Below, piece after piece: positions 8,978 to 42,634 of a stretch of 64,000 nucleotides of DNA. Every line of letters begins with the position of its first letter. The first letter of the stretch is position 1. Position numbers and translations under genes: made by a program. A model generated the notes under the pieces. That model did no database searches. It was not told where the DNA came from and saw nothing but the letters and a program-made list of their open reading frames with translations. The DNA lies in the IMG/VR virus record IMGVR_UViG_3300030333_008459, positions 1 to 64,000 of that record. One strand, given 5' to 3'. The stretch comes from a virus.

Positions 8978-8979
8978 AA

Positions 8980-25778: not shown

Positions 25779-26118
25779 CTAAAAAATCTTTTACCGTTCG
25801 TTTTCTTGGGGTGATTACAACATCTTCCCCTGCCTTCTCGCCTATATCATAGGTTTGATACTTAGACAAATCAACTCTAAAATTGAAAGCCCTGAACTTT
25901 TCATCAAGAGCGCTTTTAAGTTTAGGGCTTGTGTAGTAAGCCATTGAATCAATCTTGCGACCGAAGTCTACAATATCCATAAACTCCAGTGAATAACGAT
26001 CACATAGATCGTTAAGAAGTTTCATTTCTCTAGCAAAAAAGGGTCTCCTTCCCTTATCGGGGACTTCAACAAGACGAAAGATAATATCTCTTTTGTTTGG
26101 ACCTTTTTGCTTAGACAC
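25771..26118 (-). CDS. Hypothetical protein
   Basis: 115-aa ORF coupled to its neighbours. Confidence 0.7.
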   Translation of the reverse strand: MSKQKGPNKRDIIFRLVEVPDKGRRPFFAREMKLLNDLCDRYSLEFMDIVDFGRKIDSMAYYTSPKLKSALDEKFRAFNFRVDLSKYQTYDIGEKAGEDVVITPRKRTVKDFLDE

Positions 26119-27164
26119 TACGGATACATAACAGCAGAGGCATCTTTGTCAACCATCTTCTTCACAAGCTGGATAAAATTAGTTTTAGGATTCCAGCCAA
26201 GTTCTTCACGGGCTTTAGTAGAATCTCCGAGAAGTAAATTAACCTCTGCTGGTCTATAAAAATCTGAATTAATTTCAACAAAACAATCGCGACCATGCAT
26301 GTATCTTTCTTCAAGGCCGTCACCTTCCCATGTGCAAGCGTTTCTGTGAAAACCAACAAAATTAAAAGCTTCCTCTACAAACTCTCTGATGGTATGCGTT
26401 TCGCCAGATGATAAGACATAATCTTTAGGCTGTTCTCTTTCTTGGTTTAACATACGCCACACACCACTTACAAAATCTTCAGCATCACTCCAGTCTCTTT
26501 TTGTGTCTAAGTTACCTAATTGCATAGGTATTATCACCTTTCCTCTTTCGTATTCTGATAAAATCCTAGCTACGTTTTTAGTAATTTTACGAGTGACAAA
26601 CTCTTCTCCTCGACGCACACCTTCATGATTAAAAAGCCACCCTTGAACTGCGTAGAGTTTGTAAGAATCCCTGAACACTTTGACCAAGTGTCTAGCAGAG
26701 CATTTAGAAGCTCCATAAGGACTTCTGGGACGCAACGGATGACTCTCGTCCTGTGGAGTGGTAACCACATCTCCAAATTCCTCAGAGCTTCCTGCGTTGT
26801 AATAACGACAAGATGGTTGGTGTTTTCTAATTGCTTCTAACTGATGTAGCACAGCCATGCAATTCGTTTGCATGTGATTTACTGGCATCTCCCAACTATT
26901 TCCGACGAAAGAATTCGCAGCGAAGTTTATGAAATAATCTGGCTTATGTTTAGCTATAACCCCATCGGTGTTTTGAGCGTCAGTTACATCTAAATCAATA
27001 AGAAAAAAACGATCATTATTTTCTAGATGTTTAATATTTTTATGGTTCTTGACGCTTAGTCTTCTTACCCCTCCTATAACTGTGTGCCGAGTATGCTTAA
27101 GAAGATAGTCTGCCATGTGGCTACCATCTTGCCCTGTCACTCCTGTTATAATTATTTTTTTCAT
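26118..27164 (-). CDS. gmd: GDP-mannose 4,6-dehydratase
   Basis: ITGVTGQDGS, SSEEFG, PRSPYGASK, LFNHEG.RRG..FVTRKI, LGNLD.KRDW and RPAEV.LL.GD. Confidence 0.95.
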   Translation of the reverse strand: MKKIIITGVTGQDGSHMADYLLKHTRHTVIGGVRRLSVKNHKNIKHLENNDRFFLIDLDVTDAQNTDGVIAKHKPDYFINFAANSFVGNSWEMPVNHMQTNCMAVLHQLEAIRKHQPSCRYYNAGSSEEFGDVVTTPQDESHPLRPRSPYGASKCSARHLVKVFRDSYKLYAVQGWLFNHEGVRRGEEFVTRKITKNVARILSEYERGKVIIPMQLGNLDTKRDWSDAEDFVSGVWRMLNQEREQPKDYVLSSGETHTIREFVEEAFNFVGFHRNACTWEGDGLEERYMHGRDCFVEINSDFYRPAEVNLLLGDSTKAREELGWNPKTNFIQLVKKMVDKDASAVMYP

Positions 27165-27165
27165 T

Positions 27166-27525
27166 TTAGTCTCCTTTTTCTAATCTATAACTATCACTCT
27201 CAAAATGCTGGGTAGAAAACTCAAACAACTCCGTATCCTCCATCGCCTTAATTTGATGGCGAAGCAACACGGGGACATGAAAGCTGTCGCCTTTTGTTAA
27301 GAGAATTTCTTCAGCAGTTTCTATGTCATCACCCTCACTAAATTTTAAAACAATAGACCCAGATTGCACAAAAAAAACTTCGTCTTTAAGTTTGTGATAA
27401 TGCCAAGAAAATTTTTTATCTTTGACTAAATAAAGAAGCTTACCACAATACTCTGGCTTATTAACAATCCACTTTTCGAAACCCCAACCTTTGGGGACTA
27501 GTTTAATTTGAGAAGAAGTCTTCAT
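27166..27525 (-). CDS. Cupin-domain sugar isomerase-like protein
   Basis: VPKGWGFE.W...SWHYH..KDE.F...H cupin metal motif. Confidence 0.8.
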   Translation of the reverse strand: MKTSSQIKLVPKGWGFEKWIVNKPEYCGKLLYLVKDKKFSWHYHKLKDEVFFVQSGSIVLKFSEGDDIETAEEILLTKGDSFHVPVLLRHQIKAMEDTELFEFSTQHFESDSYRLEKGD

Positions 27526-27811
27526 CTTTAATTGCTTTGTCGTCTATGTATAAATCTCCCGCAGGTTTTCCCATGAAAAGTTCGTGATAATTAACCCCCC
27601 ATTCTTGGAGTTGTTTTTTTGTAAGGTCTTCAAACAATAAAGCGTTTTCATTATTCGATCTACCCATACCTCTAGCGGTTAAAAAATGTATAACGTTTCC
27701 TTCTTTATAAAGATTATTTACTTTTTTAATTCGATCCCAGAGAGGCTCAGAGTTTTCGTAGCCTTTATCACTATTGCAGATAGTGCCGTCTATGTCAAAC
27801 ACGTAAGTCAT
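27503..27811 (-). CDS. HAD-superfamily phosphatase (capsule-biosynthesis type)
   Basis: FDIDGT, TAR and GKP..DLYIDDKA. Confidence 0.85.
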   Translation of the reverse strand: MTYVFDIDGTICNSDKGYENSEPLWDRIKKVNNLYKEGNVIHFLTARGMGRSNNENALLFEDLTKKQLQEWGVNYHELFMGKPAGDLYIDDKAIKDEDFFSN

Positions 27812-28206
27812 AGTTTTCGAAGAAGGTTTGAGGTAGAAAAATCTCCGACCCTTTCGAAGAACAAAACATCTTCTGCAAACTCTGCACCTATTACTTCCTT
27901 AGTTTGCCAATCAGAGCCAACAACAAGATAATCTGGTCCGTAAGAGGCAATCATGTCTCTTAGTTCTGAGTCAGACCCAAAAGTTCTTATCTCATCAATG
28001 TATTTAATACATTTTAAAAAGAAATAACGATCCTCTAAGGTGTTGATGGGTCTAGTGGAGCCTTTGTTCTCTCTAATTCTTTGGTCGCTATCTATGCCTA
28101 CAATTAAGTGGTCTCCCTTGCTTTTAGCAAATTTAAAAAGCTCTAAATGACCTCTGTGAAGGACATCAAAAGTTCCGTTTACCCAGACTTTTTTAGTAGT
28201 TGGCAT
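27808..28206 (-). CDS. Sugar-phosphate nucleotidyltransferase (HldC/RfaE domain II-like)
   Basis: NGTFDVLHRGH, GIDSD, KG.TRPIN..EDR, VVGSDW and FSTS. Confidence 0.88.
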   Translation of the reverse strand: MPTTKKVWVNGTFDVLHRGHLELFKFAKSKGDHLIVGIDSDQRIRENKGSTRPINTLEDRYFFLKCIKYIDEIRTFGSDSELRDMIASYGPDYLVVGSDWQTKEVIGAEFAEDVLFFERVGDFSTSNLLRKL

Positions 28207-29119
28207 GACGAGGTTGATCAATAAGGCTATACATTTTGATCAATTGCTTGATGCCCATATCTAAATCGTATTTACATTTAAAACCCGTATCGTAAATTTT
28301 CTGGCTGCTTACAATGTAGTCTCTTTTATCTGGATCTTGAGTAAATTCAGCTTTAATTATTTCAATAGGTAGATGTTCGCCAATTTTTTCAGCGAGCTGA
28401 CGTTTATTCATATTTATTTCGTCATTGCCTATGTTGAAAGTTTCATTAGAACACTTTTCCCAATTGTCTAAAATGAAATTATATACCCTACAAATATCAA
28501 GAATGTGGATATAGTTTCTCATAAACTCGCACTCATATAAAACTAAAACCTTATCCTTAAGAGCTTTCAAAACAAAATTGTTAACCAAAAGATCCGTTCG
28601 GGGGCGCGTAGATGGGCCGAAGACTGTAGCCAATCTAAGAGTGCAGCAGCCTTCAGTATTTTGGTAGACTTTCTCAGCATCCACTTTAGTTACGCCATAA
28701 AGAGATAGCGGGTTAAGTGGGGACTCCTCGGTGCATACACCACTATCACTAGATCCATAGCCAGAATTAGTGCAGGGGTAGATAACTATCTGATCTCGGG
28801 ATTTGTTTTCAGCTATCCACTCATTAACCTGATAGTTAACTTTAACAGCTTCCGTAGGTTGGGCTTCACAAAGAGGGAATCCCACTAAACATGCAAGAGG
28901 AATAATCACATCACAACCATCCATTATTTTTTTTAAAGGGACTATACTTTTAACGTCTAAATTTTGGAATTCAAAATTTTCATGAAGAGTATACCTTAAG
29001 AGAGATGTTGGTTCATATTTTAAATTATCAACGACAACAACTTTATGGCCTCTCTCTAGCAGAAAACCAACAAGTTCGCTCCCTATGTATCCAGCGCCTC
29101 CTGTAACTAGTATTTTCAT
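28193..29119 (-). CDS. NAD-dependent nucleotide-sugar epimerase/dehydratase
   Basis: TGGAGYIG, YGVTK (YxxxK) and LRLATVFG. Confidence 0.9.
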   Translation of the reverse strand: MKILVTGGAGYIGSELVGFLLERGHKVVVVDNLKYEPTSLLRYTLHENFEFQNLDVKSIVPLKKIMDGCDVIIPLACLVGFPLCEAQPTEAVKVNYQVNEWIAENKSRDQIVIYPCTNSGYGSSDSGVCTEESPLNPLSLYGVTKVDAEKVYQNTEGCCTLRLATVFGPSTRPRTDLLVNNFVLKALKDKVLVLYECEFMRNYIHILDICRVYNFILDNWEKCSNETFNIGNDEINMNKRQLAEKIGEHLPIEIIKAEFTQDPDKRDYIVSSQKIYDTGFKCKYDLDMGIKQLIKMYSLIDQPRHANY

Positions 29120-29406
29120 CTTTTAACTCTACCTAAAATCCAATCCTTCAACATAATCCAGTCGCAAGCCTTAGCCCATAAAGGATTAGAAAAAGCAGCG
29201 GGTTTATTTTTCTCAAAAACAAAATGACCTGTCCATGCAAAGGGGTATACCACAAAAGGGGTCAAAAGTAACAAGAGCCAAAGTTGCCAATGCAAGACTA
29301 AAACTATAAACGAGATAGTGCATAGCTGGCCCAAAACATGCAATCTTCTGCACCATTTGTTTTGATGCTTAGATAAATAATATTGATAGTATTCTTTAAA
29401 ATTCAT
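29116..29406 (-). CDS. DUF962/Mpo1-like membrane protein
   Basis: YYLSKH...CRRLH..G...YPFAW.GHFVFEKNKPAAF..P motif; start at MNFKEYY. Confidence 0.85.
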   Translation of the reverse strand: MNFKEYYQYYLSKHQNKWCRRLHVLGQLCTISFIVLVLHWQLWLLLLLTPFVVYPFAWTGHFVFEKNKPAAFSNPLWAKACDWIMLKDWILGRVKR

Positions 29407-30142
29407 TAACAGTAGTAACTCCTTTCTTTTGCACAACTATAGTAGCGCATTCGTTGGCGTAGTCAATTGCTTTTTCTATGTTTTTGGTGTTAATAAAATT
29501 AACACATAAAGCAGCCAAAAAAGTGTCTCCTGCTCCACAGGGGTCTTTTATTTCAACTTTTTCGACGGGAAAATGCTTATCTCCTAGTTTGCAACCTTTC
29601 CCCGACAAGGTTTGTATTACTTTATCGTAAGTCCAAGAATTTTGTTTTATATAGTTAAGAGAGTTCTCGTATTCTTCTTGGTTTATCTTTATAAAAGAAG
29701 ATTCTTTACAAAAATCTCCTAAAGGTTTTTTAGTGTCAATAAAAACATTGTGATGATTTTTACAAATAAACTCAATATCCTCATCTAAAAGGAAACCTTT
29801 ATTGTAGTCGGAAATTATTACCAAATTATGTTTTTTTAGAAGATCTGCTTTTAGACCAGATATTCTTTGGACTCTTTCCTCTCCTGAGTCCACCCTCATA
29901 AACATATGATTTGTTTTTTTATCTATGTATCGAGTTTTTTCGATTATGGCTGTATTAGTTTTAAGAGTAGCCCTTTCCCCGAGAGACACAACGTTTTGGT
30001 AAACGTTACCAGCCATCCCTAAATTTTGTTTTTCGTGAGAAGGTATAAAAGATGGGACGGGAAAATCTGGGCAAAGGCGCTCACAGGAACCATAAATATA
30101 GATATCCTTGCAGCTATCACCTATAACTAAAATTTCAGCCAT
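29396..30142 (-). CDS. PfkB-family sugar kinase (HldA/RfaE domain I-like heptose-7-phosphate kinase)
   Basis: VIGD...G...RL.PD.PVP, GMAGNV, ISDYNKG and DPCGAGDTF. Confidence 0.88.
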   Translation of the reverse strand: MAEILVIGDSCKDIYIYGSCERLCPDFPVPSFIPSHEKQNLGMAGNVYQNVVSLGERATLKTNTAIIEKTRYIDKKTNHMFMRVDSGEERVQRISGLKADLLKKHNLVIISDYNKGFLLDEDIEFICKNHHNVFIDTKKPLGDFCKESSFIKINQEEYENSLNYIKQNSWTYDKVIQTLSGKGCKLGDKHFPVEKVEIKDPCGAGDTFLAALCVNFINTKNIEKAIDYANECATIVVQKKGVTTVNEF

Positions 30143-30551
30143 CCCAACTTATTTCCCAATCTTCGAATTCAGCAGCTAAACAGTCTATTTTGTAATCTTT
30201 TCGGCCATTACAAAGATTTTGTATTTTATTTTTAGATGTGTTTCTAATCCCGTTTAAGCCGTGAGTCAACTCTAAACTATTTCCTTCTTTTATTCCCTTG
30301 CGATAATTTGATTCATTGTGCCAAATGTGAAGATTCATTTGGGATAAAACAATTATAGCTCTAATAGTGTTAGCGTCTAAATATATTTCCCCTTCTTCTA
30401 AAATTGCATCAATATCATGCAATATTTCTTGTATTTCTGTGGCATATTCTTTTTTATGCTCACTAATAAAAACTTCTTTCAGTTGAACTATAGACAGCCT
30501 ATCTACCAGCTCAGATAAAGTGGGTAAATACTTTCTTTCTTTTTTTTCCAT
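30135..30551 (-). CDS. Hypothetical helical protein (DUF4254/DUF6165-like)
   Basis: SELVDRLSI..LK...N..IWH.E...R...N..R...K..I pattern, often found in glycan clusters. Confidence 0.55.
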   Translation of the reverse strand: MEKKERKYLPTLSELVDRLSIVQLKEVFISEHKKEYATEIQEILHDIDAILEEGEIYLDANTIRAIIVLSQMNLHIWHNESNYRKGIKEGNSLELTHGLNGIRNTSKNKIQNLCNGRKDYKIDCLAAEFEDWEISWDG

Positions 30552-30552
30552 T

Positions 30553-31443
30553 TTAAAGATGTAGGCTTTTATACCAGTTAATAGTTTTCTCTAAACCCTT
30601 TTTAAGAGGTCGTAGTAGGTTTAAGTCGGAAGTCTTGTTAATATCCAAAAGTTTAGACTTTACCCCTACATATTTACTTAGATCGTGCTCTATAAGGTTA
30701 TGATCATAGTTGTATAGCTCACAAACATATTTAGCAAAATCATTTATAGAGTGATCTTCCCCAGCACCCAAATTAAATATTTCGTTGTTCTGTCCAAGTA
30801 GATTAATCATTGTCTGACAAGCATCCTCTACATATATCAGCTCTCTCCTAGCTGTGCCATCACCCCATATGACAAATTTTTTATCATCGTATTTGGCTTT
30901 GTGGCAGTTTTTTATAAAATCGAAAATAAAATGATTGTCATTTTCTTCAAAATTAGGGCCATATAAAGTAGAGGGAACAAAATAAAGCCATTTCAAGCCA
31001 TATTGTTCTGCGTAAGATTTTAAACCCACCAATAGCATTCTTTTAGTCATCGCGTAGGTATATAAACCCTCATCAGGTTGGCCCTTTAAATAATTATCTT
31101 CTGTGAGCGGAAGTTCGGGGGAGTAAGAACAGCTAGTCCCCATTGCTATCATCTTTGCTTGTCTCTGATGGTCGTTCCAATATTTTAAAATATTAGAATT
31201 TATTCTTTGATTAATTTCAAATTGCTCACCCTTATGGTGCAAACAATAATCTCCCGCTTTTGTGTGCGCGGCTAAATGAAAAATATAATCAAATTTTATA
31301 GAATTATAAATGTGCAGGTTCTTATCGCACATTAAATTGCCAACCTGAGTATTGGAAAAATGAAGCTCCCACCCTTTTGCTTCTAAGATTTCCACTAAAT
31401 GGCGACCCAAAAAACCACTACATCCTGTAACTAGAATTTTCAT
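30553..31443 (-). CDS. fcl: GDP-L-fucose synthase-like epimerase/reductase
   Basis: TGCSGFLG, GTSCSY, YAMTKR, P.TLYGP, HFI and WGDGTARRELIYVED. Confidence 0.75.
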   Translation of the reverse strand: MKILVTGCSGFLGRHLVEILEAKGWELHFSNTQVGNLMCDKNLHIYNSIKFDYIFHLAAHTKAGDYCLHHKGEQFEINQRINSNILKYWNDHQRQAKMIAMGTSCSYSPELPLTEDNYLKGQPDEGLYTYAMTKRMLLVGLKSYAEQYGLKWLYFVPSTLYGPNFEENDNHFIFDFIKNCHKAKYDDKKFVIWGDGTARRELIYVEDACQTMINLLGQNNEIFNLGAGEDHSINDFAKYVCELYNYDHNLIEHDLSKYVGVKSKLLDINKTSDLNLLRPLKKGLEKTINWYKSLHL

Positions 31444-32273
31444 TAGTTTCTACCCATGAAATACCTTCTCACAAAGGTATAGCTTTTGTCTTCTTTAATG
31501 GCTCTCCAAATAGATAGCCATATTTCTGCATTAACACGGGCCATATCGCTATCAGCTGTAAACTCTAGGCCATATTTTTTCTTTCGAAGCCATATATCAG
31601 CACCTTCAGTGACGCTTCCTTCGAAACCTCTGATGCCGCAAGCGTGATGATAAACTATATCGCCATAAATGCCGAAACAAACTCTATGAGCGTCAAACTC
31701 GTTTGTTCTGTTAAGCTCTTTAAGTGTTAAGTTAGCGGCGTTTATTCTGTCCAACATTCCTCTTTGCGGATTTTGATAAGGATGGTGAGAAAGGTGGGGA
31801 TGTGAGTGTATTGTCCAAGCTAGATTGTTTAGTTGCCATGTTTTTTTTGTGGTGGCGAAAAAACATAAATGAGGGATTTCATGATAATCATGACTATGAT
31901 GGTAATTTTCTCTCATTACTACCGCTGTTATATCGTGTGTAGCTAAGTTTTCTTTTACAGCATTTTGCCAATTTTTGTCGCATGGAAATGCATCACAGTC
32001 TAAAAATACAATTATGTCATCATCTGTTAATTGAGAGCTGATGGTTTCGACAGCTTTATTTACTTGGTCGTAATGTTCTCCATCTATGGCACGGTAAAAT
32101 CTATAATTAGGATAATATTTATCTAAATTAGAAATATCCTCGTCTGACTTATTTAAATTCTTATCTAAAAAACAATGAACGGTATAAGCTCTAGCGTCTG
32201 TGTATTTTTGAAGGTGCTGCGCCTGAACTTCAAGCCAGTCATCTCTTCCAAATATATTTGTTATTATGTGCAT
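31443..32273 (-). CDS. Putative GT-A glycosyltransferase
   Basis: IVFLDCDAFP DxD motif; glycan-cluster context. Confidence 0.55.
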   Translation of the reverse strand: MHIITNIFGRDDWLEVQAQHLQKYTDARAYTVHCFLDKNLNKSDEDISNLDKYYPNYRFYRAIDGEHYDQVNKAVETISSQLTDDDIIVFLDCDAFPCDKNWQNAVKENLATHDITAVVMRENYHHSHDYHEIPHLCFFATTKKTWQLNNLAWTIHSHPHLSHHPYQNPQRGMLDRINAANLTLKELNRTNEFDAHRVCFGIYGDIVYHHACGIRGFEGSVTEGADIWLRKKKYGLEFTADSDMARVNAEIWLSIWRAIKEDKSYTFVRRYFMGRN

Positions 32274-32279
32274 ATATTT

Positions 32280-33026
32280 TTATCCTATCCACTCTACATC
32301 AGAGCTTTTTAATAAATCATTAGATGTCCATCCATTTTTTAGGGAAATTAGAGGGTTGTTTGTTTCTTTGCAAAATGTCATAAAAAACCCAAAAAGAGAA
32401 GAAAAGTATTTATAGCTAAGGCTTACGTCTTTATAGCCTTTTAGCTCTAAATATCTAAGAACAAGTTTAAATTCAGCAGGAATATAAATTGGAGTATCTT
32501 CGTAAGGTAATGACCAAAAATTTATCATTTCATCTATTGGCCCCAAGTTGGCGAAGTCGGCAATGTAATTGTAGTCGTTTACATCCTCGACTAAAGCAGA
32601 ATACCTTTCTTGTATCCAAGGTATTAATCCTCCATAATGTTGGGTAATTGGTATGCATTTATCTGTATGCTTACAATAAGCCATTTGATGAATGCGGTCA
32701 TCAAATTTATATGTGTCTATAAATTCTTTTGGATCTGTAAAAATTAAATCTGATCTTATTTTGATAACGTGGGTTGCCCCTAAAGCCTTAGCTAAATGCA
32801 GCCCACTAACTGTAGAATTTATCTGTAAATTAACATTTCCATAACCAGCATATGCAGGAGCAGGAGACTTAGCGAGCGTAACATTAGAATTATTTATATC
32901 TTTAAGGTCATTAATGGAAGCGCTAGCTTCGGTTGACCATATAACATTTTCTACATCGCGGACATTATCTAAAACTTCCCGACAATATTTAGTGTGACCC
33001 TGTATTAATAAATATATTTTTTTCAT
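32280..33026 (-). CDS. WavE-like LPS biosynthesis protein (putative)
   Basis: LLIQG, IWST, NVNLQINST..GL and IKIRSD motifs resemble the WavE family. Confidence 0.55.
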   Translation of the reverse strand: MKKIYLLIQGHTKYCREVLDNVRDVENVIWSTEASASINDLKDINNSNVTLAKSPAPAYAGYGNVNLQINSTVSGLHLAKALGATHVIKIRSDLIFTDPKEFIDTYKFDDRIHQMAYCKHTDKCIPITQHYGGLIPWIQERYSALVEDVNDYNYIADFANLGPIDEMINFWSLPYEDTPIYIPAEFKLVLRYLELKGYKDVSLSYKYFSSLFGFFMTFCKETNNPLISLKNGWTSNDLLKSSDVEWIG

Positions 33027-33036
33027 TATGACAGCG

Positions 33037-34242: not shown

Positions 34243-35173
34243 TTTTCTCTATATACTTAATTAAACGATCACAAGTGTAATTTTCAACAGAATGATCAAA
34301 AGAGTCCTCCATCATATCCTTGTAATTGCTCCAATTGGATAGAATCTCGGTTATTTTTAATCTAAGATCATCTTCGTTGTCAAAATAAATAAAATGTTTA
34401 TCAGGATTATACCACTGTTCAACAACATTCCAATGGTCTCGTTCGACTAAATTTACTGTTTTAGCCAAAGAAGCCTCTATAAAGCGAGATTTTAATTGAG
34501 GCAGTATGCCCTCAGAATCCACATGAGAGAACGCGATATTTTGACTCCAAGAAGGCTGGCTTTTTATGTAATGCAAATCTACTTCGTTTCGGATAGGAAA
34601 ATTATTATAGCATACTGATATTTTACATTCAGATATTTTTTGCATTTTCTCCTGATGTGTTAAATTTAAATCAGTAGCGTGGGGAATACAGGCTTGAGTC
34701 AAAGGATTGATGCCATGAGTCATGGTCATGTAGCGATAATTAAAGTTGCTTAATAAATTCAACATTCCTAGATACTTGCGCCCATGAATGCCACCGTGGT
34801 AACAAACGTCATATTTTTTTTCAGTATGTTCTGGAATATATCTTGAGTGAAACGGATACCAAACTTTTTGATACTTGTCGGTATTTTTAATTTTGTTAAG
34901 CCATTCTGCCGTAAAAGGACAAATAGAATAAATTGAATCAAACCTGTCTTCACAGTTTATATCGTAAGGGCCGCAAAACTCCGTAGGAGGGACCACGTTC
35001 AGATATATGTTCTTTGAGTGTTTAGATAGTAAATCGGAATGAGCTTGGTTGCAAATAAATGTATAACCATAATAAAGAGCGGTTGATATATCCTCTGATT
35101 GAAAATCTTCTAGGTCAAAGTAGTTAGTGTTTGTCCCTTTTATTTCGACAGAAAGATCTTTATATATTTTCAT
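34232..35173 (-). CDS. Putative GT-B glycosyltransferase (CgeB/Glyco_trans_1_2-like)
   Basis: KKYDVCY.G, KISVC.N, KSRFIEA and P..HFIYF motifs. Confidence 0.6.
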   Translation of the reverse strand: MKIYKDLSVEIKGTNTNYFDLEDFQSEDISTALYYGYTFICNQAHSDLLSKHSKNIYLNVVPPTEFCGPYDINCEDRFDSIYSICPFTAEWLNKIKNTDKYQKVWYPFHSRYIPEHTEKKYDVCYHGGIHGRKYLGMLNLLSNFNYRYMTMTHGINPLTQACIPHATDLNLTHQEKMQKISECKISVCYNNFPIRNEVDLHYIKSQPSWSQNIAFSHVDSEGILPQLKSRFIEASLAKTVNLVERDHWNVVEQWYNPDKHFIYFDNEDDLRLKITEILSNWSNYKDMMEDSFDHSVENYTCDRLIKYIEKNEL

Positions 35174-35958
35174 TAAAAAATCCCCCTTTCACAAGGGTTT
35201 ATTTTATACTTTAAAATAAGAGGAAACAACTCTTTATAATATTCTTTCAGGTTCCACTTACCTTTAACAACAGCTGAAGCGGTATAAGGAAATACATGAG
35301 AATCGTAATGACAATCCCCGCGTAAAGGCTCTTTGTTATAAGCAACCACGCCCTGTAAATTTAAATTTTTGCAGACTTCATTTGCTTCTACCTCAAAATG
35401 ACCGCCTAAAACTCCTTTTTGTCCGATATGAAGATTTGGCCCCAATTCGTGGATTTTTTCAAGAGTCTTTTTTCTCCATATCCCTGCTGTTTGGCTATAA
35501 AAAAACGGTTGATCATGAGACAAATAAAAAAGGTCGTTAGAAAGTTTTTTAGGAGTAATGTTTGGCCCCCTAGTAAACCTTATAAAAGAAAGATCTTGAT
35601 TCTCCTCCAATATTTTTAAATAGTTAGAAATTTTTGACAAATTAACTGCGTCATACAAAATATAATCTTCATTTAAATAAAGAATAAAATCTTCTTTTAC
35701 TTCTTTAAGAGACTCTAAATACTGCACTCTAAAACAGTCGTCCTTATTGTATAAAACTGCTTTATACCTTGTGGAAAGCCCAAGTGAATTATCAGTAAAA
35801 ACATAACTTGTTCCAATGAACCCTTGTTCCATGCTTGGTTCTAAAAAGTGTTTTTCAAGTTGACCAAAAAAGATTGGCCACAGATCAGAACTTGAAGAGT
35901 GGGTGTTTATAACAACAGATAGAGATGAAAACATTTTATTGGTTTTTGAATATTTCAA
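35173..35958 (-). CDS. Putative GT-A glycosyltransferase
   Basis: FILYLNEDY, Q..IWRK..L and AVVKGKW; glycan-cluster context. Confidence 0.55.
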   Translation of the reverse strand: MKYSKTNKMFSSLSVVINTHSSSSDLWPIFFGQLEKHFLEPSMEQGFIGTSYVFTDNSLGLSTRYKAVLYNKDDCFRVQYLESLKEVKEDFILYLNEDYILYDAVNLSKISNYLKILEENQDLSFIRFTRGPNITPKKLSNDLFYLSHDQPFFYSQTAGIWRKKTLEKIHELGPNLHIGQKGVLGGHFEVEANEVCKNLNLQGVVAYNKEPLRGDCHYDSHVFPYTASAVVKGKWNLKEYYKELFPLILKYKINPCERGIF

Positions 35959-36538
35959 AAGTTGTTAAGTCCCTATAGTCTGGTTCTTCAATTTGGTCTG
36001 CCGCATGTTTGGGGTAAACATTTAAAAGCATCATTCCCCTCGCCGCCCATTCAGGCGTTATATAAGAATTGTATCCTAAAAAATCAGGCTGATCTAGACT
36101 GTAAGGTGTTTTTTCGTCTCGACCAGACCACCTTAGCTTTTTCAAAGCTTTGTATATTTTAAAATCATCTGTTAAAATAGCTCCACCTTTGCCTATTTTA
36201 AGAGGCTTTTTGATGCCAAAAGATAAACACATCATGGTCCCTTCTATATACATGTTTGATGTCAGTCTTTTAGCGGCATCATAAATAGGATAAGGTTTTA
36301 ATTGATAAATGCCATGCCATTTTACATCCTCAAACTTAACCTCGCCACCCGCTTGGATAATAGATTGAGGCACAGAAATATAAGTTCTTTTGGGGATTGT
36401 AACTTCTTTTACTTTTAAATAATCACAACACAGTTTTAAAGCGTTAGTGCAGTTATCACACACCACCGCAAACGGAGCGCCTGTGTATTCCGCTAGATTT
36501 TCTTCGAACATACCTACTATTTTTTGTGGGTCGTTCAT
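35936..36538 (-). CDS. DegT/DnrJ/EryC1/StrS-family sugar aminotransferase (short form)
   Basis: FE..LAEY.G...AV...NCT.AL, TYISVP, DAA and SFGIKK(PLP Lys)..GKGGAILTDD; ATGA-coupled start. Confidence 0.85.
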   Translation of the reverse strand: MNDPQKIVGMFEENLAEYTGAPFAVVCDNCTNALKLCCDYLKVKEVTIPKRTYISVPQSIIQAGGEVKFEDVKWHGIYQLKPYPIYDAAKRLTSNMYIEGTMMCLSFGIKKPLKIGKGGAILTDDFKIYKALKKLRWSGRDEKTPYSLDQPDFLGYNSYITPEWAARGMMLLNVYPKHAADQIEEPDYRDLTTFEIFKNQ

Positions 36539-36909
36539 CTCTCTAAAATATAATATTTCTTTTTGAAGCCACAAGACTCAAAAAGAGCGATACTTTTCGA
36601 ATTTTTAATTTTTACTTTAGCAAAAGCCTCGGGGTGTTTTTCTATAAATTTACTCAACATAAACTTGCCGACACCTTTTTTTTGATGGCTTTTAATAATT
36701 GCTATCCGTATATCTTTATCAACGCTTCCTATGAATCCTATCGGGACTTTCTCTTCTAAACAAATTAGGTAATTTGAATTGTTTTTACGCATGAATTTTT
36801 CATGCTCATAAAAGCCTATGTTTTTTTGAGATACAAAACCCTCCTTAAGTTCATTCCTTAAGGAAAGAACAAAATCCCAGTATTTTTCTTCGCAGGGGAC
36901 TAACTCCAT
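36535..36909 (-). CDS. GNAT acetyltransferase (PseH-like sugar N-acetyltransferase)
   Basis: LRN..., HQKKGVGK and N.KSIALFE.CGF; adjacent to the aminotransferase. Confidence 0.75.
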   Translation of the reverse strand: MELVPCEEKYWDFVLSLRNELKEGFVSQKNIGFYEHEKFMRKNNSNYLICLEEKVPIGFIGSVDKDIRIAIIKSHQKKGVGKFMLSKFIEKHPEAFAKVKIKNSKSIALFESCGFKKKYYILER

Positions 36910-37718
36910 AGGTCTATGTCTTGTGGGGCTGGGTTTTCTGGATTAGACCAGTATGTTTTAAGATAAGTTCTCATCGCTTTCCATCCCTCTAGTTGTAAAT
37001 ATGGTCCTAAAGCTGACCCAATATCCATGTATTGGTTTTTATCAAAGTCTTTATACAGCTCATAACATAAAAAATTACTTAAAGACGCAGCGGCGAATAA
37101 AAACAAATGATTTTCTATGTTGTTTTCTTTTATCCAATGTTTGCAAGCGTCAATTAAATAATAGTCGTCTTTCATGCAATTAGGACCAACAGGAAAGTGT
37201 TTTTTTACTTTAAAGGGTAGCTTGTCAAATTTTGAATTTTTGTTGCTAACAAGAACTACGTTTTTCCCCGCTAATAAAGGAACCACCTCTGAAACAAAAT
37301 GCTTATAGTTGTCATTAATTAACACATTGCTAAATGTAAGGTGTTCATCGTCTCCCTCTTCATACAGATCCTTGCAAAACTGCCAAGAAGAAGAACCATC
37401 TTGACCATTATGGGGTGGTATACCCTTAAAATAATTTTCTTTTCTAAATTTAAAAGCTTCTACAAGCTTGGTGTGCAGGTAAGGGGTTTCTTCGGGAATA
37501 AATTTTTTCTGCTCCTCGTCTTTCTTAAAAGCATATGAAGGTAGCTGGAGAGTTTGCCCTTCATATATGTCTCCTTGGACTAGAATGCCGTCTCCTAAGA
37601 TAAGGGTTTTATTTCTAAGAACAGTTAGCTCACCATCCGAAAATCGAGCAAAACTAAATGGTTTGTCAGACTCTATTAACGTGACTATCTTGTCAAATTC
37701 TCCTTTAAATGTTTTCAT
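36900..37718 (-). CDS. Putative GT-D fold (DUF1792-like) glycosyltransferase
   Basis: FSFARFSDGE and DIGSALG motifs; ATGA-coupled start. Confidence 0.55.
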   Translation of the reverse strand: MKTFKGEFDKIVTLIESDKPFSFARFSDGELTVLRNKTLILGDGILVQGDIYEGQTLQLPSYAFKKDEEQKKFIPEETPYLHTKLVEAFKFRKENYFKGIPPHNGQDGSSSWQFCKDLYEEGDDEHLTFSNVLINDNYKHFVSEVVPLLAGKNVVLVSNKNSKFDKLPFKVKKHFPVGPNCMKDDYYLIDACKHWIKENNIENHLFLFAAASLSNFLCYELYKDFDKNQYMDIGSALGPYLQLEGWKAMRTYLKTYWSNPENPAPQDIDLWS

Positions 37719-38767
37719 TTGTAATTGTCTTTCGCCCACTCATAAATACGACTTAGAGACTCTTCTAAGTCAATATCAAGAACGTATCCTAATTCTTTTT
37801 GGATCTTCTTAACAGATGGACATCTCCTCTTAGGCTCATGCTTATATACAATTGGAGGCTCTATCAACTCTATCATATTTTTAGTGCCAGAAACCTTTTC
37901 CACTAGTTTGGCCAAGTCTACCATAGAAATTTCATTTTCAGGATTTCCTATATGATATAAAATATCCTTTCCTTGTGTTAAAACTTGAATGCAACCCGCT
38001 AGAAAATCTCCATACCAACAAAAAGTTCTAGTTTGAGTTCCTGGGGCATAAATTCTCATCTTTTCTCCTTTTAGACAGTTCGAAATAAAATTTGGAATTA
38101 CTCTCTTATCGTCTTGTCTGAAATAACCAACAACGTTGAATGGCCTAACTATTTTGCAATCTACGTTAAACTGATCTTTGAAAATATATGAGATTGTTTC
38201 AATATACATTTTTGTTACATCGTAACAAGATCTTTTGTCTAAGGTTTTTGCTGTGGGAGTATAACTCTCATCTGTAGGAATAAACTCTTTAGATGGAGTT
38301 CCTAAAACCTCTGAAGAAGAAAAATTTAATATTTTGGCATTATTGGACAAGGCTGTTTGAAGAAGGTTTTTAGTTCCCTCTGTAGAAACATCCATCGTTT
38401 CAAGGGGATATCTTTCATAATAGTAAGGGCTAGCACATCCACTACAATTAATAATAAAATCTATTTTTTCTTTATAAAGCTTTAGGCTTAAATAACTACT
38501 TGTTAAATCGTGATGTAAATTTATAAGCGTATCATCTTCCAGAAGATCTTTTCTTTCTCTTCCTAAAAAATTATCAAGCGATATAATTCGACACTTATTT
38601 TTAAACTTAAAATGATTTAAAAATAAAAGATATCTTACAAACAAAGCACCCAAAAATCCTGCTCCTCCACAAACCAAAATAGTTTTTCCTTCAAAGGAAT
38701 AACAGTTACTTTCTGTTTTTTTGTATATTTCTTCGAAATCTCTATAGTAGCAGTCTTTAAGTTGCAT
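37715..38767 (-). CDS. UDP-glucuronate decarboxylase-like SDR (UDP-xylose synthase)
   Basis: GGAGFLG, ASPYYY..P.ET, SSSEV.G, RSCYD..K, R.FN, RVI.NF, GTQTRTFC, IGNP.E and P.RRCP. Confidence 0.85.
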   Translation of the reverse strand: MQLKDCYYRDFEEIYKKTESNCYSFEGKTILVCGGAGFLGALFVRYLLFLNHFKFKNKCRIISLDNFLGRERKDLLEDDTLINLHHDLTSSYLSLKLYKEKIDFIINCSGCASPYYYERYPLETMDVSTEGTKNLLQTALSNNAKILNFSSSEVLGTPSKEFIPTDESYTPTAKTLDKRSCYDVTKMYIETISYIFKDQFNVDCKIVRPFNVVGYFRQDDKRVIPNFISNCLKGEKMRIYAPGTQTRTFCWYGDFLAGCIQVLTQGKDILYHIGNPENEISMVDLAKLVEKVSGTKNMIELIEPPIVYKHEPKRRCPSVKKIQKELGYVLDIDLEESLSRIYEWAKDNYK

Positions 38768-39746
38768 TGATTATTTCAGCTATTTTTTGAGAAGATTTAC
38801 CGTCACCAAAGGGACAGTCTGAATCTACTTGATAATTATCCTTTAAAGATTCAAAAATTCCAACAAGTTTGTCGGGTGTGCGACACATGACCAAGTGTCC
38901 TGAAGCTTTGCCTTCTGGTCTTTCTGTGCTTTTCCTACAGACAATAACTTTCTTATTCAAAAAACTTCCTTCTTCTTGCAACCCTCCGCTATCACTAATT
39001 ACAAGTTTACATTTGGCTAAAATATCTAATAGAGTATTATGAGGCAATGGGTCTAAAACGTTAACGTGAGATAATAAATGTTTGTAGCGAGAAACGTTTG
39101 GGTTGGGGTGTAGAGGCAAAATAAACTCTAAAGAAGCATTTTCTTTTGCTAGTTTATTAACCTGCTTAAACCACTCTGACATAAATTTGTGATTTTCTCT
39201 TCGATGGAGCGTTACTAATATTTTGTTATCGTATTCACATTTTTCTTTATAAGAAACAAGATTGTCTAAAACTGTATTGCCAACTATATGGCAGTCGCCT
39301 TTGACTAATTCGTGTGAAAGGTGATCTTTAGATAAAGAGGTAGGACAAAAGTTGACATCTGAAATCCTTGAAATCATCTGCCTGTATGCCTCTTCGGGAT
39401 ATGGGTGATCTAGGTTATAACTTCTTAATCCAGCCTCTAAGTAGTAAATTTTCTTATGGTTATGAAATGCAGCCAATGCACACGCAAAAGCTGAAGCTGT
39501 ATCCCCTTGAACTAAAATAGCGTCGAAGTCTCCACTTGGAAACTGGAGCAGACAGTCACTAACTATTTGATCCAATCTTTTGTCTGGGTGAGACGCATGT
39601 ATGTAGACCTTATGATCTGTTTTTATGGATTTTAGTAGATCAGTATGTTGGCCTGTAAACAAAAGCTCATAGTTATCCAATACTTCTAAAAGCGGTTTAA
39701 CCTTAAGCCACTCAGGTCTAGTGCCAAAACATATTAAAATCTTCAT
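38757..39746 (-). CDS. wecB: UDP-N-acetylglucosamine 2-epimerase (non-hydrolysing)
   Basis: FGTRPE, TGQH, VQGDT, EAGLR, PYPEE, HRREN, HPNP, DSGGLQEE and TERPEG. Confidence 0.95.
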   Translation of the reverse strand: MKILICFGTRPEWLKVKPLLEVLDNYELLFTGQHTDLLKSIKTDHKVYIHASHPDKRLDQIVSDCLLQFPSGDFDAILVQGDTASAFACALAAFHNHKKIYYLEAGLRSYNLDHPYPEEAYRQMISRISDVNFCPTSLSKDHLSHELVKGDCHIVGNTVLDNLVSYKEKCEYDNKILVTLHRRENHKFMSEWFKQVNKLAKENASLEFILPLHPNPNVSRYKHLLSHVNVLDPLPHNTLLDILAKCKLVISDSGGLQEEGSFLNKKVIVCRKSTERPEGKASGHLVMCRTPDKLVGIFESLKDNYQVDSDCPFGDGKSSQKIAEIINAT

Positions 39747-40480
39747 TCAACCTTTAACAGTTTAAATCCCTTGTCATAATAATGCTTTAAAGACAGCCCA
39801 AAGTCAATACCATTTGAATTTACTGAGATGGAATTTTCATCAACCCCGTAAGTCATGGCTGATTTAGGCTGACTACCCCATAGTTCTAAGTCATCTTCGG
39901 GGTGCGGTGGGACATAAGTGTTAAGATTTAAATATTTTTGAATAGCATAAGAAAAATGCACATCTTCTCCACAAATATTATTTAAAGGTGGACCCGTTTC
40001 TCTCCAAAAAGCACCTAAAAGATCTCGGTGAAAAAACCAAGAGTGACCTACTATATCTACTTGTTTTTTCTCTTGGTTAGGGTTGGGCCAACCAAAGCGT
40101 TCAAACGACTTATATCCCACATCATTAAAGACCACTCCTACTGTTCCATATAAGCCGTTTTCTTCTTTAATAGAGTTGATACAATTTTCTGCCCACTTAC
40201 TGCCTGGGATTGTGTCATCGTCTAATAAACATATATATTCTGATTTTGCGTTTAAGGCAAAGGCAAATCTAGCCCAAACTCCATAATTGTGATTATTGTG
40301 AGAAATTTTTATCTGACCAGAATCATCTTGTAAGTAAAAATAATTTTCGCGCTTTTCGGGTTGATTTTGCCAAATCATAATTTCATTTGGCTTAATTGTT
40401 TGTTTTGTAATAGCCTCTGTTTGCTCTTTGAGAGTATGAGGTCTTTGCCAAGTGTTTAAAACAAAAGTCACAGTGTCCAT
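39743..40480 (-). CDS. GT-A glycosyltransferase (GT2/GT64-like)
   Basis: WQRP..L, RF..AL, LLDDD and GED motifs. Confidence 0.75.
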   Translation of the reverse strand: MDTVTFVLNTWQRPHTLKEQTEAITKQTIKPNEIMIWQNQPEKRENYFYLQDDSGQIKISHNNHNYGVWARFAFALNAKSEYICLLDDDTIPGSKWAENCINSIKEENGLYGTVGVVFNDVGYKSFERFGWPNPNQEKKQVDIVGHSWFFHRDLLGAFWRETGPPLNNICGEDVHFSYAIQKYLNLNTYVPPHPEDDLELWGSQPKSAMTYGVDENSISVNSNGIDFGLSLKHYYDKGFKLLKVE

Positions 40481-40481
40481 A

Positions 40482-41327
40482 TTATTGAAATAGTTTAAAT
40501 GTTAAATCTGAAGGGTTAAAATCTCCCCAAGTGTCTTCGTATAAGTTTTTGCAAAGGTCTAGGTCTTTGAATTCTGACCAATCATTAATTATTAACAATG
40601 GTATGCCTAGTTCTTTAAACTTTTCTACCCCATGCCATCTTTGCACAATGGGAACGCTCTTCATATAAATAGATTCCCATGTTTTGTGACAATCCACCCC
40701 GTTTCCGATTGGAGAAACTGTAAAGTAAGATTGAGCGATGTCAGAAAGATAATTTTCCTGAGTAGAATTTACAAAATCGTCGTGTTCTTTTATAGATGAA
40801 GCATTTGGATAATTTTTTTCTAATTTTAAACAGTGCTCGGAACCCAGCTGCTCTATGCAATACTTGCGAGCCGCAAAATTAGTCGAAACATTAAAGTTTG
40901 CATAAACTGTATTGTTTTTTTCTAAATTATTAGAAGAGATATTTAAGAATCTTTCTTGATTTCCATGAGACCATTTAGGATTAGCTATACCTATGGGTAT
41001 AGGTTTTACTTTTGGATGATCAAACAAGAGATTTTGAGTATACCAGTGAGAAATATTCGGAAATAAATCTAATACATATTCTATTTTCTCCTTATCAAAA
41101 TTTATATCAGAGTTGTGAGTTACTAAAACAAATTGTTCTGGTAATTTTATCGCTCCAATTTTAACATAAGTAGAAAAAAGAGAAAGCTTTTCAGGCTTGC
41201 AGAAAAAATAATCGTTTTCTAGATCGTGATCAATAATGTAACTAAACTCATCTTGCCTAGCGTCTTTATAGTTACTCAGTTGATTTCTGCACTGATGCTT
41301 AAAATATGTTCCGCATAAAAATTTCAT
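40482..41327 (-). CDS. Exostosin/GT47-like glycosyltransferase
   Basis: THNSD, WYTQN, PIPIG and SP.GNGVDCHKTWES.Y...PIV. Confidence 0.65.
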   Translation of the reverse strand: MKFLCGTYFKHQCRNQLSNYKDARQDEFSYIIDHDLENDYFFCKPEKLSLFSTYVKIGAIKLPEQFVLVTHNSDINFDKEKIEYVLDLFPNISHWYTQNLLFDHPKVKPIPIGIANPKWSHGNQERFLNISSNNLEKNNTVYANFNVSTNFAARKYCIEQLGSEHCLKLEKNYPNASSIKEHDDFVNSTQENYLSDIAQSYFTVSPIGNGVDCHKTWESIYMKSVPIVQRWHGVEKFKELGIPLLIINDWSEFKDLDLCKNLYEDTWGDFNPSDLTFKLFQ

Positions 41328-42175
41328 AATAATGTTTTCTCCCAAAATATAGAGGCCGCGTTTTTACAGCCGTTTTTGAATTCATCATAACCAACATTTT
41401 GGAACTCAAGATAAGACCCAAGTTTATTGGTGTCTCCTATTATATCTTCTACCCCACAAAGCAAAGCTTCAGCTATCATACGACAAAAAGGTTCATTTAC
41501 TATCGGATGATGAAACAGAGAATTACATTTTTGAAAAACTTCTGCTATTTCAGAGTGTTTCTTTTGTCCGTTAAATTTAATATTAGGATAAGGATTGAAG
41601 AGAGCTTCTATGTTCATTTCCCCCCACCCAAAGACATCAACATTTCTGTTTAGATTGCTTTTCGCGAAATCAATTAAATGATTTAGACCTTTTAGGGGAT
41701 GTAAATAACCACAATAAACAACGTCATAGTCTTTCTCACAATCGACTTTTTTAAAAATATTAGTGTTTATTGGGTCGTAATTAATCTCTGTGTTACAAAA
41801 ATAATCACCATACATTTTCTTGAAGAATTCACGATGGAAATTACTTAAAAAGAATATTTTTTTTGTAGATTCAAATAGGTCTTTTCTGCGGTTTGGCTCA
41901 AGATATAAACAAGAATCGTGTTCTAGTCGTATGTGTTTGGGGTGTTTTATAATAAAATCTAGCTTTTCAGGGTTCTTGTTGTTTATAATTTCTAAGTTAG
42001 AACTAATTAAAAGATCATAATAGGATAAAAAATCAACCACAGAAGAAGTGTGATTATGTTCCACTACTTCATAGCCTAGTTCTCTGCCTCTCTCAATTAT
42101 AAGAGAGTTACTTAGCTGCGCTCCTCCCGAATTTTGTTCTAAGCTGAAGTCAGATACAAATAGAACCCTCATCAT
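41324..42175 (-). CDS. GT4-family glycosyltransferase
   Basis: GGAQ, YCG.LHP.KG and EPFCR..AEALLCG. Confidence 0.8.
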   Translation of the reverse strand: MMRVLFVSDFSLEQNSGGAQLSNSLIIERGRELGYEVVEHNHTSSVVDFLSYYDLLISSNLEIINNKNPEKLDFIIKHPKHIRLEHDSCLYLEPNRRKDLFESTKKIFFLSNFHREFFKKMYGDYFCNTEINYDPINTNIFKKVDCEKDYDVVYCGYLHPLKGLNHLIDFAKSNLNRNVDVFGWGEMNIEALFNPYPNIKFNGQKKHSEIAEVFQKCNSLFHHPIVNEPFCRMIAEALLCGVEDIIGDTNKLGSYLEFQNVGYDEFKNGCKNAASIFWEKTLL

Positions 42176-42201
42176 ACAGTGTGTATGATTATAGGAGTCT
42201 T

Positions 42202-42618: not shown

Positions 42619-42628
42619 CCTTTATTTC

Positions 42629-42634
42629 TTACAC
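42629..42634 (-). promoter_or_regulatory. GTGTAA motif
   Basis: 10 nt upstream of the ATG at 42618. Confidence 0.55.

Follow-up and report, generated by a model that had tools for sequence, protein, structure and literature searches.

A hypervariable glycan-gene cassette at a fixed genomic site in a lineage of marine tailed phages

We describe a 16-kb island of glycan genes in a tailed phage known from the 78,499-bp IMG/VR virus record IMGVR_UViG_3300030333_008459 (CheckV completeness, 67%), of which bases 1-64000 are hereafter called the window. The island occupies positions 26118-42175 on the minus strand and comprises 22 co-oriented open reading frames (ORFs), which encode nucleotide-sugar enzymes and glycosyltransferases (GTs), between the replication genes and nrdAB. 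Comparison with related phage contigs revealed that the site of the island is fixed and that its contents are exchanged from phage to phage, and export genes were absent from all islands compared. We regard the island as a strain-specific glycan cassette and tentatively propose, with somewhat less than even confidence, that its product is destined for virion or other proteins.

A variable cassette in a conserved frame

The genes of the island are tightly coupled, neighbors either overlapping by 1-41 nucleotides (nt) or sitting at most 10 nt apart, and their GC content is 34.9%, compared with 38.5% in the remaining record. Pfam matches identify recA-like, dnaB and primase genes on one side and nrdA and nrdB on the other, in agreement with a preliminary description of the window, which had delimited this 22-gene block from the sequence and its translations. 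The operon structure is deduced from gene overlaps only, since a promoter scan found no excess over shuffled sequences (68 found versus 65.9 expected).

For the comparison, the recA-side and nrdA-side loci of ten related contigs were merged, giving 11 islands in all. These share a common frame (NrdB, NrdA and a 138-amino-acid [aa] protein on one side; a 115-aa protein, RecA and DnaB on the other) with 70-99% aa identity, and the nrdA-recA interval between them ranges from 5.3 to 20.2 kb and from 6 to 23 co-oriented genes. Clustering of the 191 island proteins gave 117 clusters, 87 of them with a single member, so that the survey of related contigs recommended in the preliminary description exposed a hypervariable island. 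Only two island genes recur widely: gmd, which stands at the recA end of all 11 islands and of all 71 recA loci with enough upstream sequence, and a GT-B gene at the nrdA end, which is present in 10 of the 11 islands and in 32 of 64 nrdA loci, mainly those of the closer clade. The closest relative has an NrdA 99% and a RecA 98% identical to those of this phage, yet its inner island content differs, and nucleotide identity between the two, 95-100% in nrdA, drops to 62-70% right where the island begins, near position 42100. When whole genomes were compared with four relatives (G001 to G004, one of them 94% complete), the non-island parts proved to be syntenic, with approximately 50-95% identity, and the island was the sole large non-homologous block.

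The 95 cluster representatives that are absent from this phage illustrate how far the cassettes diverge, as they include short-chain dehydrogenase/reductase (SDR) epimerases and dehydratases, PseB-type dehydratases among them; GTs of the GT1_2, GT2 and GT10 (fucosyltransferase) families; radical SAM/SPASM proteins, methyltransferases, full-length DegT and class III aminotransferases; and thiamine pyrophosphate (TPP) enzymes, CMP-sugar synthetases, formyltransferases and GFO/IDH/MocA oxidoreductases. The presence of TPP-enzyme and class III aminotransferase genes in some cassettes might indicate phosphonate-type decorations. NeuB-type nonulosonic acid (NulO) synthases lie inside the islands of G001 and G003. 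Judged from its predicted products (PseB-type dehydratase, aminotransferase, methyltransferase, CMP-NulO synthetase, oxidoreductase, NeuB and PhyH), the G001 island resembles a pathway for pseudaminic or legionaminic acid (Pse/Leg)-like sugars, and in the G003 island a 362-aa protein beside NeuB matches the Maf_flag10/MptE-like family PF01973 (56.4 bits; cut-off, 34.6). A search of this phage's own record for Maf_flag10 (PF01973) returned nothing, and general Pfam and NCBIfam scans of its island ORFs gave no NeuB or CTP_transf_3 match, no search of this record aimed at PF03102 having been made.

The preliminary description had itself raised the concern that the island could be a captured host lipopolysaccharide (LPS) locus or the product of a chimeric assembly, and the data speak against both. 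In one other sequencing run, the recA/gmd and island/nrdA junctions are bridged by different contigs, and a contig of 11.9 kb from the same run covers 26773-38627, from which it differs at 77 positions; a second run has a 9.8-kb contig that spans 32363-42193. Chimeric assembly is ruled out by these junction-bridging contigs. This version of the island is also widespread, at least 58% of its sampled 31-mers being present in 20 marine or seawater runs from 14 studies (2014-2025), and it is approximately 99.3% identical in seawater runs dated 2014-2025. Recent capture of a host locus was rejected on the evidence of one gene, that of the C-methyltransferase, for which the GTDB species representatives hold neither near-identity nor synteny: the best match is 60% identical, all others are at most 48% identical, and the locus with the 60% match has no other gene in common with the phage. 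Approximately 79% of the island 31-mers also occur in three runs of 2025 (X8 to X10) that are labeled by an organism name ('organism A') and not as 'metagenome'; contigs of X8 bridge both island junctions, and the three runs might represent a host-associated sample or an enrichment.

The phage that carries the island has no close cultured relative. A megablast search against INPHARED found no near phage, and its DnaE and terminase are less than 30% identical to any INPHARED record. The record encodes a terminase, a PhoH-like protein, a sigma-like protein, a 2347-aa tape measure protein and minor tail proteins, together with a bacterial-type replication set (DnaE, DnaB, primase, a RecA-like protein, SSB and NrdAB). 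Related IMG/VR contigs number in the hundreds and reach sizes of 104-127 kb; the lineage is one of virulent marine tailed phages with genomes of approximately 105-127 kb and a very long tape measure protein.

Enzymes and glycosyltransferases

Pfam, NCBIfam and PDB matches uphold the sugar enzymes that had been named from the translations, i.e., Gmd, an Fcl-like and a UXS-like enzyme, WecB, DegT with GNAT, a C-methyltransferase and heptose-type enzymes. The island genes are listed below from the nrdA end to the recA end, between the two flanks.

42202..45252, minus strand: upstream flank, comprising a 138-aa DUF5824-like protein, NrdA and NrdB (Pfam; 85-99% aa identity in relatives)
41324..42175, minus strand: anchor glycosyltransferase, compact GT-B/GT4 of 283 aa, first gene of the island (Pfam Glycos_transf_1, 32.2 bits; cut-off, 26.4)
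40482..41345, minus strand: RXYLT1_C-like putative glycosyltransferase (Pfam PF24785, 30.4 bits; cut-off, 27; in 6 of 11 islands)
39743..40480, minus strand: GT2 (GT-A fold) glycosyltransferase (Pfam Glycos_transf_2, 36.3 bits; cut-off, 23.3)
38757..39746, minus strand: WecB, non-hydrolyzing UDP-GlcNAc 2-epimerase yielding UDP-ManNAc (Pfam, 2.4e-66; TIGR00236, 215.4 bits; equivalog cut-off, 210.15)
37715..38767, minus strand: UXS1-like extended SDR (best PDB match human UXS1, 134 bits, next 80; NF008872, 82.7 bits)
36900..37739, minus strand: glycosyltransferase of GT-D fold, DUF1792 type (AF2 model, Foldseek, VIA)
36535..36909, minus strand: GNAT N-acetyltransferase (Pfam Acetyltransf_1, 38.7 bits)
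35936..36574, minus strand: shortened DegT-type sugar aminotransferase, 212 aa (Pfam DegT, 8.4e-19; PDB alignments)
35173..35958, minus strand: 261-aa protein without a family match (no Pfam, NCBIfam, PHROGs or PDB match; in G004 at 61% identity)
34232..35173, minus strand: possible GT-B, Glyco_trans_1_2-like, marginal (Pfam, 24.6 bits, just below the cut-off of 25)
33037..34242, minus strand: nucleoside diphosphate (NDP)-sugar C-methyltransferase with Zn-binding, methyltransferase and C-terminal domains (Pfam PF08421, PF13489 and PF08484)
32280..33026, minus strand: protein with a weak WavE-like match, marginal GT (Pfam, 19.7 bits, below the cut-off of 27; no homologue in 10 related islands)
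31443..32273, minus strand: 276-aa protein (weak TIR_2 match only; singleton among 11 islands)
30553..31443, minus strand: Fcl-like SDR (NF047922, 131 bits; in 6 of 11 islands)
30135..30551, minus strand: 138-aa protein without a significant family (family and PHROGs searches; 83% identity in G004)
29396..30142, minus strand: heptose-7-phosphate kinase-like protein of HldE domain I (PfkB) type (TIGR02198, 129 bits, E = 1.7e-37)
29116..29436, minus strand: small Mpo1-like/DUF962 protein (Pfam PF06127, 5.5e-32; two hydrophobic segments in the hydropathy scan)
28193..29119, minus strand: SDR related to PDB 6vo6/6vo8 (full-length match, 278.6 bits; next, 71.8)
27808..28221, minus strand: heptose-1-phosphate nucleotidyltransferase-like protein of HldE domain II type (TIGR02199, 100 bits, E = 8.8e-29)
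27503..27811, minus strand: small HAD phosphatase of the EcbF/BcbF capsule-phosphatase subfamily (TIGR01689, 36.7 bits; in 6 of 11 islands)
27166..27525, minus strand: small cupin, candidate sugar epimerase/isomerase (Pfam Cupin_2, 30.7 bits; weak match to the Cap5F cupin domain)
26118..27164, minus strand: Gmd-family NDP-sugar 4,6-dehydratase, anchor at the recA end (Pfam, 4.2e-104; TIGR01472, 322 bits, below the equivalog cut-off of 415)
22513..26118, minus strand: downstream flank, comprising a 115-aa protein, a RecA-like protein, two small ORFs and the DnaB helicase (Pfam; 70-98% aa identity in relatives)

Among the sugar enzymes, the UXS1-like SDR is probably a UDP-glucuronate decarboxylase or a 4-keto-pentose synthase, and the Fcl-like SDR is possibly a 4-keto reductase, perhaps with epimerase activity too. 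The SDR at 28193-29119 is closest to PDB 6vo6/6vo8, which we take to be Cj1427 of Campylobacter jejuni, a GDP-heptose C4-dehydrogenase. The kinase, phosphatase and nucleotidyltransferase profiles of the heptose-type genes (TIGR02198, TIGR01689 and TIGR02199) all score below their equivalog cut-offs, and no SIS-domain match that would indicate the sedoheptulose-7-phosphate isomerase GmhA was found among the window ORFs scanned; the host may supply this isomerase. The short DegT protein keeps the lysine motif SF..KK and lacks approximately 60 internal residues and the whole C-terminal domain. A frameshifted gene with its C-terminal part in the next ORF is not supported, as that ORF shows no similarity to DegT and a diverged relative keeps the arrangement of two ORFs; the same short form occurs in G004 at 74% identity. 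The C-methyltransferase has many metagenome homologues with 60-89% identity. PHROGs returned no match for ten ORFs of the island and the phage core. Two further features of the island deserve mention in their own right: the Mpo1-like protein is its sole membrane-type protein and a singleton among the 11 islands, and WecB shows a length polymorphism of 6 aa, an in-frame insertion of 18 nt after position 39525 that is present in two sequence variants in contigs of three other runs.

The island was previously credited with about seven GTs of several folds. The diversity of folds stands (GT-A, GT-B and GT-D), and the number is nearer to four solid assignments, i.e., GT-B, RXYLT1_C-like, GT2 and GT-D, with two marginal ones at 34232-35173 and 32280-33026. 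The anchor GT-B was modeled with high confidence (AF2 pLDDT, 97) and resembles SPS, BshA, HepE, WaaG, PimA and PglA with VIA Z values of 20-24. The T4 alpha- and beta-glucosyltransferases (Z values of 18.6 and 15.3, the top value being 23.7) and GtfA (4pqg; Z, 19.1) appear among many GT-B matches, and this fold search did not separate lipid, LPS, small-molecule, DNA and protein acceptors. The GT-D enzyme (AF2 pLDDT, 95) is more distinctive: significant Foldseek matches were obtained only with 4phr, 4pfx and 5v4a, VIA gave Z values of 15.0-15.2 with three DUF1792 structures and 9.2 with the next fold, and the DXE motif D35-x-E37 is invariant in 42 homologues.

Three further GTs lie outside the island.

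7832..10875 (7832-8977 and 8980-10875), minus strand: two core GT genes, one with a GT4-like domain and DUF4214, one with the C-terminal half of a GT9 (Pfam)
46428..47510, plus strand: core GT4-like glycosyltransferase adjoining ssb (phrog_2170, 4e-14; Atlas neighbors carry Glycos_transf_1)

All three are core genes of the lineage, retained at 62-78% identity in relatives with differing islands: the pair at 7832-10875 is 62-73% identical in G001 and G002 despite the different islands there, and the gene at 46428-47510 is 64-72% identical in G001 to G004. A fourth GT proposed outside the island, at 7069-7845, was not confirmed, as Atlas gave no GT signal for it. The metagenomic protein P0380 (1448 aa) fuses a domain like the core GT 8980-10875 to a domain like the anchor GT, and this fusion ties the conserved non-island GTs to the island pathway. 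The best PDB match of its N-terminal domain is the chlorovirus protein B736L (E = 1.4e-7); PDB sequence searches with 8980-10875, 7832-8977, 35173-35958 and the G003 Maf-like protein gave no match.

Other features of the window are recorded here for completeness. The phage replication module holds a gene on the minus strand (14072-16501) for an 809-aa ClpB/ClpA-like double AAA+ chaperone (AAA_2, 2e-52; ClpB_D2-small) that relatives keep at 67-79% identity, and a search of the window for tRNAs found none. The hexamer GTGTAA, a proposed phage promoter element, is not enriched across the window (23 matches versus 25.2 expected from shuffles); several copies stand just upstream of gene starts, at 12698, 16508, 42629, 45265 and 58262.

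Export, acceptor and destination of the glycan

The preliminary description reported that no flippase, Wzy, ligase or ABC exporter is present in the window, and this holds more widely. None was found in the 78.5-kb record, and a hydropathy scan of the 191 island proteins and of five genomes (one 94% complete) gave at most two hydrophobic segments per protein, the tape measure protein excepted. An initiating phosphoglycosyltransferase of the WbaP or WecA type is likewise absent from the island, which has no Bac_transf or Glycos_transf_4 match and no polytopic protein. Bacterial O-antigen and capsule loci normally carry a phosphoglycosyltransferase together with Wzx/Wzy or ABC components. Soluble or peripheral GTs also build LPS cores and undecaprenyl pyrophosphate-linked units at the cytoplasmic face of the membrane. 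The further step from missing membrane machinery to a pathway independent of lipid carriers, taken in the preliminary description, does not follow, because the MsbA, Wzx or ABC systems of the host could export such products.

The acceptor that had been suggested on the particle is a fibre-like protein at the end of the contig.

3..4364, plus strand: repetitive fibre-like protein, open at the 5' end of the contig, candidate acceptor only (Ser plus Thr, 23%; proteome median, 11.7%)

Its near-identical repeats of approximately 200 aa share the recurring unit 'GISNTNAVKIDSASVADDEYARFT..GLESRS.SEV.SDIG', and homologues of 1637 aa in G001 and 1815 aa in G002 are 67-70% identical. The core GT genes at 7832-10875 converge on the fibre gene from the opposite strand, while the island itself sits in the replication module. 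As a separate observation, the gene after the fibre (4361-5341, plus strand) is 98-99% identical in G001 and G002, compared with 67-70% for the fibre (57-4364) and 70-93% for most backbone genes, a pattern suggesting that a stretch next to a second variable locus recombined recently.

In the mechanism that we propose, the island would be transcribed within a long minus-strand unit that includes nrdAB and the replication genes, and its soluble enzymes would tap host pools of GDP-mannose, UDP-GlcNAc, UDP-GlcA and heptose phosphate. The predicted products are a GDP-6-deoxyhexose, a nucleotide-heptose derivative, UDP-ManNAc and a UXS-derived sugar, the last of which may be aminated and N-acetylated and perhaps given a C-methyl branch. 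Transferases of the GT-A, GT-B and GT-D folds would then assemble an oligosaccharide in the cytoplasm: the conserved ones (the anchor GT-B and the non-island core GTs) would initiate the chain on an acceptor that is itself conserved, for which a structural protein of the phage, such as the repetitive fibre, seems to us the likeliest candidate, and the exchangeable genes would add the outer part that varies. Cassettes are exchanged as wholes from phage to phage, we propose through recombination within the flanks and anchor genes that all share. The gene content, the exchange of cassettes, the lack of export genes and the folds are observations, whereas the sugars made, the sequence of steps and above all the acceptor are inferred. 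A bolder version, which we consider less likely than not, is that this abundant ocean lineage has a recombining 'virion serotype locus' anchored by gmd and the conserved GT-B, which would place a strain-specific O-glycan on the fibre or other particle proteins, of deoxyhexose/heptose/ManNAc type here and of nonulosonic acid type in relatives, as a viral parallel to bacterial O-antigen diversity.

A protein acceptor is favored by the GT-D enzyme of this phage and by the Maf-type transferase beside NeuB in a relative. The characterized GT-D enzymes act in the cytoplasm, where they lengthen the O-glycan carried by the serine-rich adhesin Fap1 (PMC5063993, PMC5207161), and Maf enzymes attach nonulosonic acids to Ser/Thr of flagellin that is still cytoplasmic and awaits export (PMC4065374; bioRxiv 10.1101/2020.06.03.131540, where Maf_flag10 and PF01973 are treated as one family). 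Several points weigh against this assignment, however: (i) the acceptor is a candidate only; (ii) the fibre is only moderately rich in Ser and Thr, at twice the median, and has no mucin-like or Ser-rich tract, so that the earlier emphasis on its Ser/Thr content stands in part; (iii) the Maf-like protein belongs to the relative G003 and not to this phage; and (iv) the fold of the anchor GT-B is matched about as well by enzymes that act on lipids or small molecules as by those that act on LPS or proteins. The known function of GT-D enzymes, moreover, is defined by very few of them. The remaining points against a protein acceptor (the site of the island among early/middle replication genes and away from virion genes, the presence of GT9, HldE-type and WavE-like families typical of LPS core synthesis, and the published view of similar marine phage islands, which favors modification of the host O-chain [PMC7029224]) lead to the principal alternative.

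According to that alternative, phage-made nucleotide sugars and GTs at the cytoplasmic face would alter the LPS core, O-unit or capsule of the host on the host's own lipid carriers, with host MsbA, Wzx/Wzy or ABC systems carrying the product outward; a surface altered in this way would keep out superinfecting phages or prevent the loss of progeny by adsorption to debris, and cassette diversity would track the hypervariable glycotype of the host. We consider remodeling of the host envelope to be a serious contender, only slightly less likely than a protein acceptor. LPS-type families are indeed represented by a GT9 heptosyltransferase half, an HldE-type ADP-heptose module and WavE-like and EpsE-like matches, the island shares an early/middle transcription unit with nrdAB and the replication genes, and C-methyltransferase homologues that are 60-72% identical occur on metagenome contigs as long as 365 kb and of probable cellular origin, a pattern suggestive of gene exchange with cells. 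Against it, not one of the 11 islands encodes an initiating phosphoglycosyltransferase, flippase, polymerase, ligase or ABC permease. The known seroconversion modules of phages (GtrABC, Oac and Wzy variants) consist of membrane proteins, and none of these modules occurs here. That the anchor GTs are conserved points to an acceptor that is conserved as well, protein acceptors are the only ones known for GT-D and Maf-type enzymes, and the GTDB representatives hold no close host locus, as tested with the C-methyltransferase. The standard view of the LPS clusters of cyanomyophages and of the GT-rich hypervariable cluster of pelagimyophages nevertheless supports a role at the host surface (PMC3037559, PMC7029224).

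The preliminary description had coupled the virion with phage DNA as possible destinations, and the two fared differently: the virion, still a candidate only, gains indirect support from the GT-D enzyme and from the Maf-type enzyme of a relative, whereas the transfer of sugars onto modified bases, which would block restriction, now appears highly improbable. The island does lie between replication genes and nrdAB, the core GT at 46428-47510 is co-oriented with ssb, and poly-arabinosylated cytosines are known in phage DNA (PMC13326640). The starting point of most known sugar modifications of pyrimidines, however, is a base that a ThyA homologue has hydroxylated or hydroxymethylated (PMC13326640), and no ThyA (PF00303) or ThyX (PF02511) was found in this record and its four relatives (G000 to G004; the record 67% and G001 94% complete), nor any Tet_JBP (PF12851) protein, the latter in a search without a positive control. 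DNA glycosylation is therefore unlikely; the hydroxymethylase or TET/JBP gene whose presence elsewhere in the genome had been considered was found in neither the record nor the 94%-complete relative, and approximately six transferases of three folds with at least four sugar pathways are far beyond any known DNA modification. Another cytoplasmic target (host flagellin, pilin or adhesins, or a soluble glycoconjugate), or roles at both the virion and the host surface depending on the cassette, strikes us as unlikely: Maf-type enzymes normally act on flagellin (PMC4065374) and the cassettes are very heterogeneous (NulO pathways, radical SAM proteins, TPP enzymes and formyltransferases), but no specific candidate target was found.

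Known systems and significance

Comparable islands have already been published for marine T4-like phages. Large 'LPS' gene clusters of the cyanomyophages P-SSM2, S-SSM7 and S-SM2 were described in 2010 with function unknown (PMC3037559), and the GT-rich hypervariable 'host recognition cluster' of pelagimyophages was interpreted in 2020 as serving host O-chain modification (PMC7029224). The island resembles them as a large block of nucleotide-sugar and GT genes with a fixed site and variable content in virulent marine phages. It differs in that its lineage has a DnaE-type replicase, a 2347-aa tape measure protein and no T4-like myovirus backbone; in its position, which is between nrdA and recA and not in a tail-fibre region; and in its defined anchors, gmd and GT-B, the absence of export genes being documented here across 11 islands.

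To our knowledge, mycobacteriophages provide the only demonstrated case of particle glycosylation in tailed phages; they reportedly carry a few GT genes beside their virion genes and use host sugar nucleotides. Their virion O-glycosylation has been shown (Freeman et al. 2023, Cell Host Microbe 31:1216, as cited in PMC12691614 and PMC11256854), and the parallel lies in phage-encoded soluble glycosyltransferases, for which we propose cytoplasmic action. Unlike theirs, the present system, known from genes alone, comprises 22 genes with sugar pathways of its own and is located away from virion genes. Giant viruses (Mimivirus, Megavirinae) glycosylate fibres or capsids by means of rare-sugar pathways and soluble GTs with clade-specific content. 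A link to such viruses runs through P0380, which is related to the core GT 8980-10875 and matches the chlorovirus GT B736L of NY-2A (PDB 3oy2); the likeness is distant and transitive, as these are viruses of eukaryotes and the core GT itself has no PDB sequence match.

The bacterial islands for flagellin (Maf with Pse/Leg) and for serine-rich-repeat adhesins (GtfA/B with dGT1) are similarly export-less, with hypervariable sugar pathways and soluble GTs, and act on Ser/Thr of a filament protein before assembly. Shared with them are the GT-D enzyme here and Maf_flag10, NeuB, CMP-NulO synthetase and PseB-type dehydratase in the islands of relatives; unlike them, this phage has no Maf, and no GtfA/B pair was identified. 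The heptose-type genes recall the modification of capsular heptose in C. jejuni (PMC10680097), with a kinase, a phosphatase, a nucleotidyltransferase, a 6vo6-like SDR, a cupin, an Fcl-like reductase and a Gmd-family dehydratase, but they are of the HldE (ADP-heptose) type and not HddA/HddC, with no GmhA found and no capsule export genes.

To conclude, if the glycan is placed on the particle, as we tentatively suggest, open-ocean tailed phages would carry strain-specific sugar coats made by pathways of their own. This would affect how the phages adsorb, how readily they stick to particles and grazers and how host defenses recognize them, and the glycosylation of phage virions would reach well beyond the mycobacteriophages. 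If the host receives it, infection by virulent marine phages would bring a rewritten cell surface, produced by cassettes as diverse as the glycotype islands of their hosts. Either way, the locus is a clear marker of fine-scale phage diversity, and the lineage offers defined parts for a direct test, namely, the anchor transferases, the GT-D enzyme, the Maf-like enzyme of a relative and the candidate fibre.

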